A stretch of 27,705 nucleotides of DNA from Cenarchaeum sp. (GTDB taxonomy: Archaea; Thermoproteota; Nitrososphaeria; Nitrososphaerales; Nitrosopumilaceae), in contig CAXVTD010000001.1 in assembly GCA_963693095.2 (NCBI GenBank), positions 1-27,705 of the forward strand, in the 5' to 3' direction. Below are positions 2,037 to 11,647 of the stretch, in pieces. Each line of letters begins with the position of its first letter. The stretch's first letter is position 1. The position numbers and the translations under genes were made by a program. The notes below the pieces were generated by a model. It searched no databases. It was not told the origin of the DNA and saw only the letters and a program-made list of their open reading frames with translations.

Positions 2037-5000
2037 CTATGCCCCAATGTGCGCGTCTAGGCCAGTCTTTTTGGGCTTCCAGTCCCTTGGCTCAAACTCG
2101 TCTGGAAGCGTGGCGATTATGCGGTCAGACTCTGCGCCAACATGCACGGCGCGCTCGATGACTGCGATAATATCGTCCTCGTCCATGCCCTCTAGCGGAT
2201 TGTTGACTATGTGGCTATCCTTGTCGACTGTGCGGTTGTAGCGGTCAACGACCCACTCTAGGGGCGTGCGGCCGTTCACCGTGTACTTTGGCTGTGGAAT
2301 GTCCTCAAAGACTATGACGTTGTTTATCCTGATCTTTGTCTTGTCGGCCTTCATGCCGATGCGGCCAAATGCCACCTTTGCCGGTTTGCCAAACTTTTCA
2401 TTTGGCCTTCCAAGGTTGAACCTCTTGCACGTCTCAAAGTTTAGGTGCAGGTCTGCGAGCTTTTTGCCTGCCTGGCTGAATTTCTTGAAGTCGGGGGCCA
2501 TTGGGATGTTTGGGAGGTCTTTGGCGAGATTGTTGGCGAATTTGCCGCGATACCCAGAATGGTGCAACATTCCATATATGTAATAGAATACATCATTTTT
2601 ATTAATTCGTTCATTCTCATAATGTCCTTTATATTCTTGCACTGAATATTCTGTAATGTTGTCTATTTTTGTATTTTTATTATATGTGTATAGTGGGAAA
2701 CATTGATTGGAATTTACAATATGTAAATCCGGCATAGTGTCGGTTATAATAACAGAAAATTCGCCTATGAATTTATACGGAACGCAAATTACCAGATTTT
2801 TTGACATATCGGTTGGAAACATCCGTGGAATTTGATGAATTGCACCATTATATGTCTTGTCAAAATATATTTTTTGTTTAAAAAACGGTCGATACAGTGC
2901 TGTTCTAATGTTGTTTATGTCAAATTCTGGTTTATGTATTTTTAGATTATTTCCTAATTCTGTTGACCATTTTGCGTATCTAGAATCAATCACTGGATTA
3001 TCCAAGTTTTGCGCGTTACAATATTTGATATGTTTCCTCATGTTGTTGAATAGCTCATCTCGAGATGTATTATATGCCCATATGTCTCGTTTTGTTATTA
3101 TTCCTAACGAATATGTCTGAAATATGGCATTTGTTTTGCCTGCTTTGGCACTTTTACTTCCCATTGGCAAATATTCCAAAAACCTGTTGTCTCGTTGATC
3201 AAGCCAATCATTGTGTATATCTGGGAACACCGTCGTCCAGTCGTTGATATTTTTGATGGATCTAAAACTTTTGATCATTTCGAGCTTTTTCTCCCTAGTC
3301 AGGTAGTCTCCTATGTCTTTGTAATAGATCTTTGCTGTGCTTGACTCGCCTCCTCCACTACGCGGACTCTTGACCAGTATGGTGACTGCAACAGGGGCTC
3401 TGGAGCCTACACCGAATATGTTGCCACCCTCACGGCGACGCGTCTCGCCTTGAGTCCTCTGGTTTGCGCGCAGGTCTAAGCACCACACCTCGTCAAACTC
3501 CTTCGAAATCGAGTCGCGTATACCCGCTGCTGCGTCAGAGCGCACAAAGCTCGCGTTGGTCACGAACGCCACTATGCCCGATTCGCCTATGCGGTCACTT
3601 GCCCATCGTAATGCCCGTATGTACGAATCATAGAGTGAGTTTTTGTTATGGACGTTTGTGTTTTTGATATACATATCGTTAACCCTTTTATCTAACATTG
3701 GATATTTTGTGTTAGGATTCTCGTCATTGTAATTGCTTTGTCGTGATGAATATGGTGGATTTCCCATGATCACGTCCACGCTGGTGGCCCTCTGGCGCCT
3801 GACGCGCTCGTGCGCCACCCTGAACATCCCGCCAATAGTGGCCTGCTCGCCCCTGTGCTCCTTGCCGCTGAGGTAACGTGGGTTCTGACGGAGCGTGTCG
3901 GTGTAGCTGATCCCCTCAAACGGGACGTACCTGCCGCCGTTGCCGCTGGAGTATGTCGTTTCTATGTTCACCGTGGCAATATAGTATGCCAGAAGTATCA
4001 TCTCGTTTGCGAGCAGGTCGTTCCGATACTTTTGGTACGCGTTGTCGCCCAGCAGCCCTGAGTCAAGCAGGCGCGTGATGAACGTCCCAGTGCCGGCGAA
4101 CGGCTCGAGTACCTTCACGCGCCGGTCGTCAAACCCCATACCAAAGCGCGTCTTGAGCACGTGCTGCACGCTGTGTATCACAAAGTCGACCACCTCGATC
4201 GGGGTGAAGACAACACCGTGCTTTTCGGTCTCCTTTTTGGCAGTGCTCTTGAAAAAGTTCTCGTACAGCGTCTTGATAAAGTTCTGGCGAGCCTTAGTCG
4301 AATCTATGAGCTTGACCTCGTCCTTCACCTTGGCATAAAACTCCTCTAGATCCTCAAGCTCGGCGTCTAGGCCAAAGCTTGCGGCCATCTTGGAGAGAAC
4401 CTTTGATATTGGGTTGTGCGACGTGAACTCTCCACTGAACAGCTCGTCAAAGACGCGCGCGAGCACGACGTGCTGCGCGATCACCCTGATCGCCTCATCA
4501 CGCGTGACCGAGTCGTTGATGACTGACTTTAGACTCTCGTGAAACTCGTCTAGCTCGCGCCTCTTTGACTTTGATGCATCTAGCATGGTTTCTATGCGTT
4601 CCTCAACTATGGCCGCCGCCTTTCCTATCTTACGGCCGTACTCGTTGTAATAGTCAACGTCGCCGACCTTTCGTATCAGCGTGGACTTTATCTTGTCAAA
4701 TAGTTTCGGCATGGGGAGCTTTTCCTCACCTTCGAGACCCAGTATCGAAAAGCTGATCCTAGGAGTCACATCTCCGGAACTCTCGCCCTCTCCCCTGTCG
4801 AGTATGAGCGAGTTTATCTCACGCGCGAGTGACTCGTCGTGCGAGCGTAGCGCGTTGAGAACCTGCCAGACGGTTCGATACGACGGGTGACTGTCAAGGG
4901 CATTGTTTGTGTCGACTCCTGCGGGTATGGCCACGGGAAGCACGACATATCCGGTATCCTTGCCCGGCGCTCGCCTCATGACCCTGCCGACTGACTGGAC

Positions 5001-6707
5001 AATGTCGACTATGGACTCGCGTGGGTTCAAAAACACGACACCGTCAAGAGCTGGCACATCAACGCCCTCAGACAGGCACCTGGCATTGGAGAGTATGCGA
5101 CACGTGTTCGGATCGACGTCACTGGCACCAAGCCACCTCATCTTCTCGCGCCTCTTTAGCGCGTTCTTTTTGCCATCAATGTGACTAACCTCCACGTTGC
5201 TGGTCGTCGGCCTCTTTGTCTTTATCTCCCCAACCACGTTCTCAAAGCTGCGCTTTTTCCTGACATCGCTATCCTCCAAGTCACCGGCAAATATCTCGGA
5301 GCGGTCTATTCTGTTTGTGAACGCAATGACCTTTTGCAGGAGCTTTGGGTCTCCCTCGCCCTCTGGATACTGGATCCCGTGCCACACGGCGGCCAGGAGC
5401 GTTCTCTCATCTAGTGGCATCGCGCCATCCTTGGCCACGGCCTGCTGGAACTCCATGTCGACATATTTCGTGCTCACCATTGGCACGATCACCTTAAAGT
5501 CGGCGAGCGCCTTGTGCTTGTGCACCGCGTCAACAAACCCCAGCCTGTGGAACACCGGCCCGTACGTCCTTTCGTCGTCCATCGAATAGATCGCCGGCTC
5601 GCTACTCGCCGCCTCGATGCCCTTCTTTTCTATGGCACGGCCACGCGCCGCACCCTTTACGGTCTCGCCGTATATCTTTGGCGTGGCAGTCATGTATAGG
5701 CGCCTCTTGGCAAGAACGTTGCGGTCATTGTGGACATGCGTATAATACGAGTCGTTCTCGACGCCCGTGGTCCGGTGCGCCTCGTCGCACAGGACGAGGT
5801 CGAACTTTTTTCCGAGCGCCCTTGATGCCACCTTTATGGAGTGGTACGTGGAGAATATCACCGTCATCGCCCCCTTTGGCCGGTTCATCACGTTTCTCAT
5901 CAGATCGTCGGGATTTGTGGACACGGGGCACTCTAGCTCGAGTATAGAGCCCTCCTCGCCGACGCTCTTGTCCGAGCACACCGCCACGTAATAGTGGCCG
6001 GTTCCGGCATTGTCTGACCACTCGCGCATGCTCTGGTATATGAGCGAGATTGACGGGACTAGATAGAGGACAGTCCCGTTGCGGCCAACTAGGTTCTCGG
6101 CTACGTGGAGCGCAACGAGCGTCTTGCCTGTCCCGCACGCCATGACTAGCTTGCCCCTGTCTGAGCCCTTGAATCCGGTGATAACGTCATTGACTGCCTG
6201 TTCCTGATAGTCGCGCAGCTTTTTGGGGCTCTTGACTGCGCGTTTTGGATACTTGCTCCAGTCAAAGTTGCTCCTCTGCAGCTCTTCTGTCCCGATTACC
6301 TGGCAATGGTGGTTTTCTAGTAGCTTTCTAGCATTGGATGTTATACTTCCTCCTGTGTATATCAATATCATGCTATGGAACTTTTTTCCGGATGCGTCTG
6401 CAGGAAAGTTGGAGATTTCATTTTTCCCCAGCACGTGGTCTTCACTATAGCACTTGCACTGTATTGCACACAACTTGCCGTTCTCCTCTGCCACTAGGTC
6501 AGTCCCCATATCGGGCTCGCCCTTGTTTCCAGGCCACGATGCCCACTTGTACACCTTGCTGAATCGGTTTGAATACACACTATCCGTGCTCAAAAACTCT
6601 ACCATTAGATTTTCAAACATCTTGCCTTTCTCCGTCTCACTCTTAGACTCTCGTCGTATCTTTTCTAGAATATCATCAAATGTTTGAGGGGCAGACTTGC
6701 TGCTCAT
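2037..6707 (-). CDS. Type ISP-like single-polypeptide restriction-modification enzyme (Mrr-like nuclease, SF2 helicase, N6-adenine MTase, TRD)
   Basis: 1556 aa. N-terminal GTDLVAE...AIQCKCY nuclease motif; Walker A MACGTGKT; DEAH; LSEGVDVPALD and QSVGRVMR helicase motifs; MTase motif I EPFAGTGTF and motif IV NPPY; C-terminal LYRPF...YYIYGMLH...LHLNFE TRD typical of LlaGI/LlaBIII-like enzymes. Confidence 0.9.
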   Translation of the reverse strand: MSSKSAPQTFDDILEKIRRESKSETEKGKMFENLMVEFLSTDSVYSNRFSKVYKWASWPGNKGEPDMGTDLVAEENGKLCAIQCKCYSEDHVLGKNEISNFPADASGKKFHSMILIYTGGSITSNARKLLENHHCQVIGTEELQRSNFDWSKYPKRAVKSPKKLRDYQEQAVNDVITGFKGSDRGKLVMACGTGKTLVALHVAENLVGRNGTVLYLVPSISLIYQSMREWSDNAGTGHYYVAVCSDKSVGEEGSILELECPVSTNPDDLMRNVMNRPKGAMTVIFSTYHSIKVASRALGKKFDLVLCDEAHRTTGVENDSYYTHVHNDRNVLAKRRLYMTATPKIYGETVKGAARGRAIEKKGIEAASSEPAIYSMDDERTYGPVFHRLGFVDAVHKHKALADFKVIVPMVSTKYVDMEFQQAVAKDGAMPLDERTLLAAVWHGIQYPEGEGDPKLLQKVIAFTNRIDRSEIFAGDLEDSDVRKKRSFENVVGEIKTKRPTTSNVEVSHIDGKKNALKRREKMRWLGASDVDPNTCRILSNARCLSEGVDVPALDGVVFLNPRESIVDIVQSVGRVMRRAPGKDTGYVVLPVAIPAGVDTNNALDSHPSYRTVWQVLNALRSHDESLAREINSLILDRGEGESSGDVTPRISFSILGLEGEEKLPMPKLFDKIKSTLIRKVGDVDYYNEYGRKIGKAAAIVEERIETMLDASKSKRRELDEFHESLKSVINDSVTRDEAIRVIAQHVVLARVFDELFSGEFTSHNPISKVLSKMAASFGLDAELEDLEEFYAKVKDEVKLIDSTKARQNFIKTLYENFFKSTAKKETEKHGVVFTPIEVVDFVIHSVQHVLKTRFGMGFDDRRVKVLEPFAGTGTFITRLLDSGLLGDNAYQKYRNDLLANEMILLAYYIATVNIETTYSSGNGGRYVPFEGISYTDTLRQNPRYLSGKEHRGEQATIGGMFRVAHERVRRQRATSVDVIMGNPPYSSRQSNYNDENPNTKYPMLDKRVNDMYIKNTNVHNKNSLYDSYIRALRWASDRIGESGIVAFVTNASFVRSDAAAGIRDSISKEFDEVWCLDLRANQRTQGETRRREGGNIFGVGSRAPVAVTILVKSPRSGGGESSTAKIYYKDIGDYLTREKKLEMIKSFRSIKNINDWTTVFPDIHNDWLDQRDNRFLEYLPMGSKSAKAGKTNAIFQTYSLGIITKRDIWAYNTSRDELFNNMRKHIKYCNAQNLDNPVIDSRYAKWSTELGNNLKIHKPEFDINNIRTALYRPFFKQKIYFDKTYNGAIHQIPRMFPTDMSKNLVICVPYKFIGEFSVIITDTMPDLHIVNSNQCFPLYTYNKNTKIDNITEYSVQEYKGHYENERINKNDVFYYIYGMLHHSGYRGKFANNLAKDLPNIPMAPDFKKFSQAGKKLADLHLNFETCKRFNLGRPNEKFGKPAKVAFGRIGMKADKTKIRINNVIVFEDIPQPKYTVNGRTPLEWVVDRYNRTVDKDSHIVNNPLEGMDEDDIIAVIERAVHVGAESDRIIATLPDEFEPRDWKPKKTGLDAHIGA

Positions 6708-7173: not shown

Positions 7174-8265
7174 TGTATTATACGGAAAGTAGGAGCGCTA
7201 CCCATCCGAGTCCACCTCCATCCACCCGGGGTTCTCCGCCCGGACCCGCCCGTCGGCCCTCCGCCTCCTGAAGGCCAGTAGGGGCGTCTCGCCGGTCTCC
7301 ATGTCGAGGGAGAAGTGGAGCCTCTCCTCGTTGTAGTGCCCGATGAACTCGGCGACCCCGCCATGGCGGCCGATCTCCGTCTCGAGCGTCCGGAAGAACC
7401 TCTCCACCTTGCCGTTGGTCTGGGGGTGGCCGACGCGCGCCATGACGTGCTTTATCCCGGCGTCGAGCAGCTCCCGCTCGAAGAGCGTCGGCGTCCAGCT
7501 GCGGCGAGGCGCGTCGCGCCTGGTCGCCGTGAACTGCGTCCCGTGGTCCGAGAGCACCTGCGCCGGCGCGCCGAACCGTCCGATCGCGTGGCGCAGCGCC
7601 ATCACCGTGTTGCCCGACGTGGCCTCGGGGAAGACGCCAAACCCCGTGACGCACCGCGACGCGTCGTCGAGGAACACTATGAGGTGCGAGCCCCTCAGGG
7701 GACCGTATTTCATTATGTGCCAGTCCACGTGCCACATCGCGTTGGAGTACTTTCTCTCGAACCGGACCCACTTGCGCCTCCTCGACCTCGCCGGCGAGCT
7801 GCTGACCAGTCCCTCCGCAGACAATATGCGGTACGCCGCGCCGTACGCTATTTTTGAGTTGTTGAGCCGCATGAGCCTGACCAGGCGCACCACGCCGACG
7901 GGGTCGCGCGAGTGCGCGGCGAGGACCTCGTCGGCCTGCGCCTGTGTGATCGGCCTGCGCGGTCTCCCCATCGGCCGCGGCTCCGGCGGCGCGCCGGTCC
8001 GCCGGCAGTGCGCGCGGAGCTTGCGGGCCCACGACGGCGAGATCCCCAGCTCGCGCGCCACTTCCCCGGTGCTCCTGGTCGCAAGCGTCCTCGCGATGTA
8101 CCGGAGCGCCCGCGCGTCCAGCCTCCTGACCGGCATGGCGCGCCGGCGCCGGAGGCCCCCAAACGTGTGTTTCGGCAGCCTGCCGGACCCGAAGGCCATC
8201 AGCGGGCTCCCGGATCCGCGCCCGGCAAGCCCTCTGGCCCCCGCTCCTACTTTTTGTACAATACA
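7174..8265 (-). mobile_element. IS481-family insertion sequence, 1092 bp, 24-bp imperfect IRs, 16-bp target-site duplication
   Basis: Left end TGTATTATACGGAAAGTAGGAGCG (7174-7197) versus reverse complement of 8242-8265 TGTATTGTACAAAAAGTAGGAGCG; TGT...ACA termini; flanking direct repeat GGTGAGGGGGCAACTG at 7158-7173 and 8266-8281. Confidence 0.93.
7198..8136 (-). CDS. IS481-family DDE (rve-type) transposase
   Basis: N-terminal HTH (STGEVARELGISPSWARK); WHVDW, FLDDASR, VLSDHGTQF, PQTNGKVERFFRTL and YNEERLHFSL motifs; stop abuts the IR. Alternative start at ATG 8199. Confidence 0.9.
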   Translation of the reverse strand: MPVRRLDARALRYIARTLATRSTGEVARELGISPSWARKLRAHCRRTGAPPEPRPMGRPRRPITQAQADEVLAAHSRDPVGVVRLVRLMRLNNSKIAYGAAYRILSAEGLVSSSPARSRRRKWVRFERKYSNAMWHVDWHIMKYGPLRGSHLIVFLDDASRCVTGFGVFPEATSGNTVMALRHAIGRFGAPAQVLSDHGTQFTATRRDAPRRSWTPTLFERELLDAGIKHVMARVGHPQTNGKVERFFRTLETEIGRHGGVAEFIGHYNEERLHFSLDMETGETPLLAFRRRRADGRVRAENPGWMEVDSDG

Positions 8266-8436
8266 GGTGAGGGGGCAACTGGCACGGCTGTGACTACCAG
8301 TCTTTGTGCTGCATGTTCTAACCGCTCTCTTGCTAGATGGGTGTTGTAGATTCTGGCAGAACGTCACTGGGATTGTCCGTTGTTGATGGGCTGGTTCCGG
8401 CCATGCAGCCACCGACGCTCGGGCATATGTGGACTA

Positions 8437-8892: not shown

Positions 8893-10215
8893 CTAGCCGA
8901 GGCCCATCTTTCTGAGAAATCCCTGCATCTGGCGCCCGCCAGAGGCCTTCATCATGCCCTTTGAGTTCTTGAAGTTCTTCAGGAGGTCCTTTACGTCGTG
9001 CTCAGTAGAGCCGCTCCCGCGCGCGATCCTCTTTGCGCGAGACGAGTTTATCGAGTCGGGATCGTCCTTTTCGACGCGCGTCATGCTCTGTATGATGTGG
9101 CGCCAGCGCGCGACCTTTTCCTCCATGTTGTCGAGCTGGCCATCCTTTACGCTTCCGGCAAAGCCGGGCATCGACTCTATCATGCCGCGCAGCGAGCCGC
9201 CGCTGGCCATTCCCTCAAGCTGCGAGTAAAAGTCATCCATGTTCATCTTGCCGCGCGCCATCCTCTTTATGCTGTCACCGCTGGCGTTCTCCTCGAGTTT
9301 CTTTGCCATGTCGAGGACCGCCTGCACGTCGCCCATGCCGAGCAGCCTGCCGACAAACCTTGTGGACGAAAAGCGCTCGAGGTCACCGATGCGCTCACCC
9401 GTGCCGATATACATGACGCGCGCACCAGTCTCGCTTGCCGCAGCAAGCGCACCGCCACCCTTGGCCGTGCTGTCGAGCTTTGTTATCGCAATGCCGCCGA
9501 CCTTTGCTGCCGAGTGGAATGCGGCGGCCTGCGCGCCGCACTGCCTGCCCATCGTCCCGTCCACGACGAGGAGAACCAGGTCTGGGCTTGCCGCCTTTGC
9601 CATCGTCTTCATCTCCTCGAGGAGCGCGCCCTCCTCCTTGTGCCTGCCCGCAGTGTCAATTATTATCACGTCCGGCGCATCACCGTGGTGCTTTAGGCCG
9701 GCTGACACAATGGCTGTCGCATCGGTGTTTCCCTCCTCGCCGTACACGTCAACGTGCGCCCTGGAGCACATGTCGCGAAGCTGCTCTAGTGCGCCTGGCC
9801 TGTGCGTGTCTGCGCCGACTGCGGCGACCTTGTAGCCGTTTTTCGTCAGGTGCATCGCAAGCTTTGCGGCAGTCGTCGTCTTGCCGCTCCCCTGTATGCC
9901 GAGCATGAGTATCCTCGTCTGCGTGCCGGCCTTGAACTCAAACTCTGAGTCGCGCCCGAGCATCGCGGCGACCTCGTCATAGAGTATCTTGATGATGTGG
10001 TCCTTTCGCGGAAGGCCCGGCGGGGGCTTTTCGTTCGTCGCCCTCTCCTCTATGCGCTTTGTCACGGCGATGACGATCTTTACGTCAACGTCGGCCTGGA
10101 GGAGGGCCCTCTGAACGTCGCGCGAGAGGTCCTTTATGAGCTCGGCGTCGACTCCGCCGGCCGAGACGACCTTTTTTATCGCCGCGCGAAGGCCTGTCTT
10201 TAGCGAGTCGAGCAT
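8893..10215 (-). CDS. srp54: Signal recognition particle 54 kDa protein
   Basis: ALLQADV, GIQGSGKTTT, DTAGRH, TKLDSTAKGGGAL, RLLGMGD, M-domain IIQSMT...RIARGSG. Confidence 0.97.
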   Translation of the reverse strand: MLDSLKTGLRAAIKKVVSAGGVDAELIKDLSRDVQRALLQADVDVKIVIAVTKRIEERATNEKPPPGLPRKDHIIKILYDEVAAMLGRDSEFEFKAGTQTRILMLGIQGSGKTTTAAKLAMHLTKNGYKVAAVGADTHRPGALEQLRDMCSRAHVDVYGEEGNTDATAIVSAGLKHHGDAPDVIIIDTAGRHKEEGALLEEMKTMAKAASPDLVLLVVDGTMGRQCGAQAAAFHSAAKVGGIAITKLDSTAKGGGALAAASETGARVMYIGTGERIGDLERFSSTRFVGRLLGMGDVQAVLDMAKKLEENASGDSIKRMARGKMNMDDFYSQLEGMASGGSLRGMIESMPGFAGSVKDGQLDNMEEKVARWRHIIQSMTRVEKDDPDSINSSRAKRIARGSGSTEHDVKDLLKNFKNSKGMMKASGGRQMQGFLRKMGLG

Positions 10216-10913
10216 GGCGCGCGCAGGGCCGCGTCCTCTATTTCAAACCTTCCCCTGTACCCGTCCCACGTCGCCGTCGCGCCGCGAATCTCGATCGCGC
10301 GCGCAAAGAGCGGGCACTCGGTGACAAACGTCTCGGCCTCGCCGCCCTCAAATGACGCGTCAAAGCCAAACTCTTCGGCGAGGCGCCCTAGCCTCCGGAC
10401 TGCCCCGTCAGTCACCTCGGCCCCAAGCCACTCGGCCCCGAGACCGCCGGCCGAAACGGCGACTATGACAAACCTAAACTGCGCGGCGAGGAGCGCTCGC
10501 AGGTGCGCAACGCCGCCGTGCCCCCACAGGGGCGCAATGGCCTGAATGCCCGCACTCTTGGCCGCAGCCGCAAACGTGTCGCGCTGAAACGCGCTGCTGA
10601 TTCCACCGTGGACGACTCCGTCAATATCGTGCTCGCGCGCGGCCTCGGCGAGCGCCAGTGCCAGTGCGCCGCCGTCGGCGGCCGGTGCGGCAAAGCTGAC
10701 TAGAGGCACGCCCATGGCCTCGGCGTGCAGCGCAACGTGCTGCGCGTTGGGGTGGTGATATACCATGTTCTCGCCGCTCTCTGGCAGCGCGCCGACAACG
10801 CAGGCGATATCGTGCCCGCTAGAGCTCGCAAGATGCGCCGCATACGCGCTGTCCTTGCCACCTGACATTAGTGCAGCTAGCCTCACGCCGCCCCTAAACC
10901 CTGCAGGTGGCAT
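10200..10913 (-). CDS. dph6: Diphthine--ammonia ligase (Dph6/PP-loop family)
   Basis: SGGKDS PP-loop, APLW, EGGEAETFV. True start may be GTG at 10886. Confidence 0.85.
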   Translation of the reverse strand: MPPAGFRGGVRLAALMSGGKDSAYAAHLASSSGHDIACVVGALPESGENMVYHHPNAQHVALHAEAMGVPLVSFAAPAADGGALALALAEAAREHDIDGVVHGGISSAFQRDTFAAAAKSAGIQAIAPLWGHGGVAHLRALLAAQFRFVIVAVSAGGLGAEWLGAEVTDGAVRRLGRLAEEFGFDASFEGGEAETFVTECPLFARAIEIRGATATWDGYRGRFEIEDAALRAPCSTR

Positions 10914-10914
10914 G

Positions 10915-10974
10915 GCGCCTCGTAACTCATAATCCTCATCATCATCAGATGGCTTTTCCGCATTTCATCGGCGC
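10915..10974 (-). ncRNA. Box C/D guide sRNA candidate; D guide complementary to a CAU tRNA anticodon loop
   Basis: Minus strand reads GCGCC-GATGA (C)-AATGCGGAAAAGCCAT-CTGA (D')-TGA-TGATGA (C')-GGATTATGAGTT-ACGA (D, degenerate)-GGCGC, with a 5-bp terminal stem. It fills the aIF5A-dph6 gap. Confidence 0.7.
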
Positions 10975-10979
10975 TGCGC

Positions 10980-11390
10980 TCAGCCCCGGACGCGCATTAT
11001 TTTAGTCATGCCCATGACGGTCCAGTACTCTACGTTCTGGCCGTTCTCGACTGTGCCCTTTATCTCGTCGTCGACCATCGTGACATCTATGGTATCAAAG
11101 GTTTCAGAGTCCATGATCTGTATCGTCTCGCCGCTGATCGATATGACCTGCGCGGTCCGCTTGTCGATCAGGGGGACGTGAATCTGCATGCTCACCGGCC
11201 CGACGTGCGGGCGCTTTTGGCCGTCAAAGACGCCAACGCCGACGATTCTTGCCTTGGCCGAGCCGTGCTTGCCCGGCTTGCTCGTGTCATATTCGACAAT
11301 CCTGCACGCCTCGCCGGTGGGTTGGTCAGAGACGGGCAAGAGTATGTACGAGCCCACCTTTAGCGATCCTAGGTCTGCTGGCTTTGACAC
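10980..11390 (-). CDS. eif5a: Translation factor aIF5A (eIF5A/EF-P homologue)
   Basis: Hypusine motif SKPGKHGSAK; GTG start at 11390, about 30 bp from the AT-rich tract at 11414-11420. Confidence 0.95.
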   Translation of the reverse strand: MSKPADLGSLKVGSYILLPVSDQPTGEACRIVEYDTSKPGKHGSAKARIVGVGVFDGQKRPHVGPVSMQIHVPLIDKRTAQVISISGETIQIMDSETFDTIDVTMVDDEIKGTVENGQNVEYWTVMGMTKIMRVRG

Positions 11391-11647
11391 GGCGCACGGC
11401 GTGCTGCGGCGGTATTTTAAGGCTTTAACGCGCGCGCAGCTTGCCCATGACCGTAGCATGGGCGCCCCCTAGTTCCGTCTTTGCTGCAGCCGGCGTGCCC
11501 TGTGGGGCACCTGCACTGGCGCCGGCCCATGGCTGGCCTGCCGTGCTCTAGGTCAGGGCATTATGGCCACACGCGAGCCTGTCTGGTCCACCGTTGCCCA
11601 TGGCGCTCACAAGGTATTTAACGACGCGAGCGGCGCGAGCGGCGCAT

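Follow-up and report, generated by a model that had tools for sequence, protein, structure and literature searches.

The stretch analysed here (hereafter the window, 27,705 nt of Cenarchaeum sp. DNA) carries a minus-strand cluster of aIF5A, dph6 and srp54 with a short candidate RNA gene lying between the first two (Table 1). This gene order had been read in an initial annotation and profile searches agree with it, as aIF5A and dph6 score over the curated cut-offs and the third gene is a Srp54/Ffh homologue below its cut-off. All parts of the box C/D sRNA proposed at 10915-10974 are present on the minus strand and stand where that annotation had put them. Boxes C, D', C' and D follow one another in this order within the ~50-70 nt expected for archaeal box C/D sRNAs, with boxes C and D deviating from consensus in this genus (one mismatch in box C, two of four positions in box D). 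Two details of the initial description needed adjustment. Both arms of the terminal stem GCGCC/GGCGC were found, and the final C of the 5' arm is shared with box C, so that no 3-nt bulge is left; moreover, the guide does precede box D, with an extra T (10924) separating the 11-nt guide as first quoted from the box.

Table 1. Coordinates of the sRNA, its parts and its neighbours in the window.
Feature	Position	Strand	Remarks
Box C/D sRNA core	10915..10974	-	~60 nt; model R2 65.6 bits (window in training set)
Terminal stem, 5' arm	10970..10974	-	last C doubles as first base of box C; covariation
Box C, CGATGA	10965..10970	-	mostly TGATGA among relatives; GATGA invariant in 38/38 rows
D' guide	10951..10959	-	9 Watson-Crick pairs with 23S rRNA 2598-2606; G10953 (N+5) opposite C2600
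Box D', CTGA	10945..10948	-	
Box C', TGATGA	10936..10941	-	
D guide	10924..10935	-	10 Watson-Crick pairs (10934-10925) with elongator tRNA-Met 31-40, G.U to U41; G10928 (N+5) opposite C34
Box D, degenerate ACGA	10920..10923	-	relatives of the own family (f1) mostly ATGA/TTGA
Terminal stem, 3' arm	10915..10919	-	covariation
TATA-like A/T box within aIF5A 3' end	10997..11004	-	candidate own promoter of the sRNA
aIF5A, upstream neighbour	10980..11459	-	NF003076 over cut-off
dph6, diphthine-ammonia ligase	10200..10913	-	TIGR03679 over cut-off; homologous start probably GTG at 10886
srp54 (Srp54/Ffh) homologue	8893..10215	-	TIGR00959 E 5e-107, below curated cut-off

The 60-nt core occurs identically in a second copy at C1:1102517. 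The window as a whole (1-27705) is a ~95% identical duplicate of C1:1076604-1108349, and its contig is probably a strain or haplotype contig. We also noticed an IS481-family transposase-like gene (7198-8412, minus strand, below the curated cut-off), which has several copies in C1, and a helicase/restriction-like ORF of 1556 aa (2037-6707, minus strand) with a 78-92% identical paralogue at C1:707270-711458. L7Ae, Nop5 and fibrillarin are all encoded by the genome.

Upstream of the sRNA, the TATA-like box lies 35 nt before the GA of box C, inside aIF5A codons. Of the 24 loci that abut aIF5A, 18 have a TATA-like motif at the same distance, as do 13 of 17 loci separated from it, which suggests that the conserved box is the sRNA's own promoter; some cases could instead reflect a duplicated end of the gene. 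Many genomes of the own family carry extra DNA between aIF5A and the sRNA (L010, L011, L014, L015, L104, L109, L113, L115), and in such loci a piece resembling the aIF5A 3' end remains before the sRNA. This gap may be an insertion site for islands.

We then consider the D guide, for which the wobble base of a CAU tRNA had been proposed as target. Three CAU tRNA genes were found in the genome, at C1:405231-405324 (minus strand), at C1:1454254-1454329 and near C1:1380262-1380362 (minus strand). Judging from acceptor and anticodon stems by tRNA identity rules, we take them to be elongator Met, Ile2 and initiator Met, respectively. An ARAGORN CAU call at C1:268396 was treated as false, being missing from the cmsearch list, and a relaxed ARAGORN run was discarded as it returned thousands of false tRNAs. 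The initiator gene has a D-arm intron and adjoins the TiaS gene (1379387-1379725, plus strand).

Results showed that the D guide forms 10 Watson-Crick pairs with positions 31-40 of the elongator tRNA-Met and a G.U pair at U41, the count from box D falling on the G that pairs with C34, just as the initial annotation had it under the N+5 rule. The exact 11-mer that it predicted occurs in no tRNA, only at the sRNA itself, the tRNA having U41 where C41 was expected. Absence of this 11-mer from the CAU tRNAs had been named as grounds to give up the target; since the discrepancy comes down to one G.U pair, the target is not thereby refuted. Wobble C34 of the elongator is in fact upheld by the own tRNA gene, by conservation and by orthologues from another class, in which box D and guide align to the Rfam families sR41 and sR-tMet (see below). 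Across 44 stable RNAs (7,911 nt) the runner-up target reached 7 pairs, and 5 of 400 shuffled guides attained 10 pairs against the same set.

The elongator gene contains a 17-nt intron at 30/31. In a survey that matched 33 of 41 genomes, the intron sits at 30/31 with constant exon ends in all 30 orthologous loci fetched, 28 of which form the 4-bp helix at the centre of the splice motif. As the 3' exon begins at A31, the whole target lies in the exon, unbroken in both precursor and mature tRNA, and either form fits the guide. The guide pairs with exon positions 31-40 only, and the pairing across an exon-intron junction that is typical of sR-tMet and sR41 was not found. In the genome G038 of family f15 the elongator tRNA-Met is without intron and the guide still fits.

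For the D' guide, which the initial annotation had left without a target, we found one in 23S rRNA: 9 Watson-Crick pairs with positions 2598-2606, C2600 being the N+5 base, against 6 pairs for the runner-up. Shuffled D' guides attained 9 pairs in 23 of 400 cases (same 44 stable RNAs, 7,911 nt), a weak test taken alone. C2600 aligns with position 2512 in the copy from an E. coli strain, in which the A-loop uridine is numbered 2554; as this uridine is U2552 in standard numbering, the site is standard E. coli C2510, presumably at the start of helix 90. In the own 23S rRNA, 42 nt separate C2600 from the A-loop uridine 2642. U2552 is the first A-loop base (PMC4644070), human Cm4456 and Arabidopsis 25S Cm2880 likewise precede the A-loop uridine by 42 nt (PMC11542601 Table 2), and SNORD49A/B guide human 28S Cm4456 (PMC9941101). 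By spacing to the A-loop uridine, without direct 28S alignment, the C2510-equivalent is thus human Cm4456. With 10 and 9 bp and a Watson-Crick pair at N+5, both guides are in the range expected of archaeal box C/D sRNAs, for which at least 9 Watson-Crick pairs are required (Lui et al., PMC6009581), and both sites are known methylation sites elsewhere according to PMC6601510, PMC11542601, PMC9941101 and the PMC4644070 supplement. In one genome (G033) the 23S gene (L068, G033:C1:1017500-1019600) is interrupted by ~1 kb of inserted sequence, probably an rRNA intron, which lies a few bases upstream of the stretch that the D' guide would pair with.

We asked how far the sRNA is conserved. At E <= 0.01, model R1 found the sRNA in 132 of the 151 genomes of the order, a count that takes in weak matches (E > 1e-4) as scored, and orthologues were present in all 32 genomes of the own family (f1, probably the Nitrosopumilaceae) and all 31 of f15. 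No match was returned for G006, G030 and G034 (completeness 95, 94 and 89). Boxes and guides are both retained by orthologues across the order. Loci from 91 genomes were used for parsing. In f1, 41 of 44 loci could be parsed, and all 41 have the Met guide core, the N+5 G, the A at -10 and a single base between guide and box D; among the other three, G008 is intact by eye, G015 has a guide altered at two positions and so weakened, and G011 has lost the Met guide. In f15, 17 of 21 loci were parsed, all with Met core and A at -10; box D is canonical CTGA in 15 of the 17 and lies one base from the guide in 14. The unparsed f15 loci comprise G068 and G104, which show the Met core by eye, and G110 and G137 (genus g67), which have G at -10. 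Beyond these families the Met guide is retained in f6 and in two of three f12, and it is replaced in f4, f8, f9, f10, f13 and f19, where the 23S guide is kept (L023, L024, L025, L030, L153-L172). Since those genomes of f4, f8, f9 and f13 that were read still have the same tRNA target, and considering the loss in G011, the Met guide is dispensable. A scan of named genomes for the dual-guide pattern gave at least 120 matches; of the 80 listed, 79 belong to Nitrososphaeria-type archaea and one is a bacterial chance match.

Some other features were seen in the relatives. Second weak R1 matches (model positions 26-60) lie at other loci in many f1 genomes, and these are probably further unannotated C/D sRNAs. 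At L018:869-960 (G012), and also in G009, G007 and G018, a short stretch complementary to the own D' guide is found just downstream of the sRNA.

This conservation bears on whether the D guide might also, or mainly, methylate C34 of the other CAU tRNAs, Ile2 or initiator Met. Each offers 7 Watson-Crick pairs spanning C34, with duplex energies of -12.0/-12.5 kcal/mol versus -13.8/-14.9 for the elongator, a modest preference that leaves them within 1.3-2.9 kcal/mol of the cognate. (Thermodynamic folding missed the D-arm of the tRNA cloverleaf, and accessibility values were therefore unused.) In addition, the G at -10 of the two g67 orthologues (L141 and L143, in G137 and G110) could pair with C39 of the initiator or Ile2 tRNA; when the elongator tRNA-Met was sought in genus g67 and in G122, only other tRNAs came up. 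Against this, 7 pairs fall short of the 9-bp criterion, and all 58 parsed orthologues of f1 and f15 that have the Met core keep the A at -10, which pairs only with U39 of the elongator. Furthermore, the guide tracks the elongator intron in the class of G278 described below, and C34 of tRNA-Ile2 is the substrate of TiaS, a domain of which is present in this genome. We therefore regard a role on the other CAU tRNAs as very improbable and keep the elongator as the probable target.

We also looked for covariation. The structure of the terminal stem was chosen by eye on a sequence-only alignment; over its 38 rows, 94.7% of cells are paired and all seven pairs show two-sided changes. Shuffled alignments equalled this in 0 of 500 cases on four of five measures and in 89 of 500 on the fifth, and slid controls gave 35-47%. 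The GA of boxes C and D is invariant in the 38 rows, and in each of them the closing stem pair abuts the GA of box C with no 3-nt bulge, so that a canonical K-turn needs fraying. Such a stem is not new, because the Rfam consensus lines of sR34, sR47 and sR-tMet are likewise bulge-free. The guides change together with their targets as well. All 23 f1 genomes read have U as the 23S target base and all 15 others have C, and the matching guide base is A in all 41 parsed f1 loci and G in 35 of 37 parsed others. The exceptions are G085, where a guide A faces a 23S C (a true mismatch; 6% contamination), and G031, whose 23S site is unassembled. This switch is one evolutionary event on the tree. For the Met guide, the own pre-tRNA was the best or tied-best partner in 5 of 5 genomes.

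These results weigh on the reading that no RNA gene exists and that the element is a conserved regulatory or 5'-UTR part of dph6 with chance box-like words. It does abut the in-frame dph6 ATG (10913), and a search of the window against Rfam at the gathering score matched only tRNAs. Considering the four boxes in order, the compensatory stem and the two covarying guides, and that the sRNA persists at loci with no dph6 nearby, we hold this reading to be extremely improbable.

Another possibility is that the sRNA is real and at present serves the 23S site alone. Its D half, with an ACGA box and no K-turn bulge, would then bind tRNA-Met and either methylate it poorly or only aid the folding of the intron-containing precursor. 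Box D is degenerate in 41 of 41 parsed f1 orthologues, the Met guide was lost repeatedly, and the D' guide is the deeper constant, being kept in 18 of the best 30 matches in the class of G278. Conserved guide-target pairings unable to methylate are also described by Lui et al. (PMC6009581). On the contrary, all 41 parsed f1 loci retain both the N+5 G and the spacing of one base, CTGA is canonical in 15 of 17 parsed f15 loci and the GA of box D never varies in the 38 rows, which makes a 23S-only role unlikely to us.

Taken together, the locus probably encodes a dual-guide archaeal box C/D sRNA, with C34 of elongator tRNA-Met and C2600 of 23S rRNA as its predicted methylation targets. The sRNA would be transcribed from the minus strand, probably from the TATA-like box in the aIF5A 3' end, or excised from an aIF5A-dph6-srp54 transcript. 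L7Ae would bind at C/D and C'/D' and recruit Nop5 and fibrillarin, RNP assembly and the N+5 rule being established for the family (PMC6009581). The D guide on tRNA-Met 31-40 would then position C34 for 2'-O-methylation, and the D' guide on 23S 2598-2606 would position C2600 (E. coli C2510). The benefit may be a rigid Met wobble base and a stabilised helix adjoining the peptidyl transferase centre.

We extended the search beyond the order. Model R2 matched only in f1 and f28 at phylum level (29 of 151 genomes), and it matched 59 of 151 genomes in the class of G278, which is probably Bathyarchaeia. Among the best 30 matches in that class, the 23S guide is retained in 18, and 21 have aIF5A, srp54 or dph6 as a neighbour; the ~9 away from these genes are mostly other C/D sRNAs. 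Both guides are kept in exactly three of the 151 genomes (G296, G302 and G306), all beside aIF5A, and their D guides resemble sR41/sR-tMet; the syntenic orthologues of this class reach 47.6 bits against sR41, whose cut-off is 54, and 37.7 bits against sR-tMet, whose cut-off is 50. In G296, G306, G305 and G337 the tRNA-Met intron begins, by eye, after A37, and each Met guide extends its pairing into the 37/38 intron of its own tRNA. The D' guides of G305 and G337 are degenerate, G337 is not syntenic, and a search for the tRNA-Met gene in G302 found none. With their own precursors the guides of these four genomes form 10, 11, 9 and 10 pairs, best or tied best, and the window guide forms 10 pairs with its own precursor and 7-8 with theirs. 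A separate conserved C/D sRNA occurs in this class (L362, L370, L372, L374, L375, L377, L378), not beside aIF5A; its shared D guide looks aimed at another C34 tRNA, perhaps Leu CAA.

It is conceivable, if somewhat doubtful, that the two guides already sat together on one sRNA at the aIF5A-srp54 locus in the common ancestor of the two classes and have stayed on it ever since. In this scenario the tRNA-Met intron would have shifted from 37/38 to 30/31 or disappeared, and the tRNA guide would have changed alongside, giving up pairing with the intron for pairing with the exon alone. If true, wobble methylation would have been uncoupled from splicing, and the RNA would be a rare case of a long-lived guide for both tRNA and rRNA, as well as a candidate relative, within archaea, of two snoRNA functions of eukaryotes. 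The switch between guide and intron is a clean experiment made by nature, from which to learn whether the unspliced precursor is required for Cm34. Mechanistically the sRNA follows the textbook; what the analysis offers is two specific, testable RNA modifications for ammonia-oxidising archaea. We found no earlier description of such a guide in these archaea in the literature searched. Outside that literature, the 2010 PNAS Nitrosopumilus maritimus genome paper reportedly listed a few candidate C/D sRNAs aimed at tRNA wobble positions, and this RNA may already figure in its supplement. According to Lui et al. (PMC6009581), only ~20% of tRNA-targeting sRNAs are dual guides and guides are rarely conserved long-term; the window sRNA keeps both guides throughout the order and also in a few genomes that belong to another class.

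Finally, we compared the window sRNA with known systems. Up to E 10, seven weak Rfam matches were obtained, all to C/D sRNA families, the best being sR41 (19.2 bits, E 0.01); against the gathering cut-offs, the window scores 15 versus 50 bits on sR-tMet (RF02163) and 19.2 versus 54 bits on sR41 (RF01126). Haloarchaeal sR-tMet and Pyrococcus sR49 (PMC2584109), with the same D-guide consensus in sR41, share with it the anticodon-complementary core ending the D guide. They also have the same N+5 register on C34 of elongator tRNA-Met, a stand-alone, non-intronic gene and a terminal stem abutting box C, and the window sRNA would act in the way described for them (PMC2584109, PMC4033218, PMC7994747). 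The initial annotation had called it a thaumarchaeal counterpart of the euryarchaeal Cm34 guides. This stands for target and site; the mode of pairing differs, as the sR-tMet and sR49 guides pair partly with the 37/38 intron, so that methylation must precede splicing (PMC2584109), whereas the window guide pairs with the exon only. The second guide, to 23S C2510, further sets the window sRNA apart from sR-tMet and sR49. Because it scores below the Rfam cut-offs and lacks the pairing with the intron, we file it as a predicted archaeal C/D sRNA related to sR-tMet/sR41, not as a member.

In humans, snoRNAs guide the methylation of both its sites (tRNA-Met Cm34 and 28S Cm4456). SNORD97 and SCARNA97 (PMC6601510) are also box C/D guides for Cm34 of elongator tRNA-Met; they are eukaryotic, intron-encoded and work as two cooperating RNPs. 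Human SNORD49A/B (28S Cm4456) and plant 25S Cm2880 concern, by the 42-nt spacing, the same rRNA position, a shared site and not shown homology. SNORD49 and SNORD97 are absent from the seven Rfam matches up to E 10, which limits the correspondence to target sites. Among archaea, Methanopyrus sR7 and Ignicoccus sR473 (PMC4644070 supplement 1) are predicted to act on C2784, 42 nt before the A-loop U2826 and therefore on the same site; they differ from the window sRNA in that their second guide is directed to another 23S site (G2720 and C2693) and not to a tRNA.
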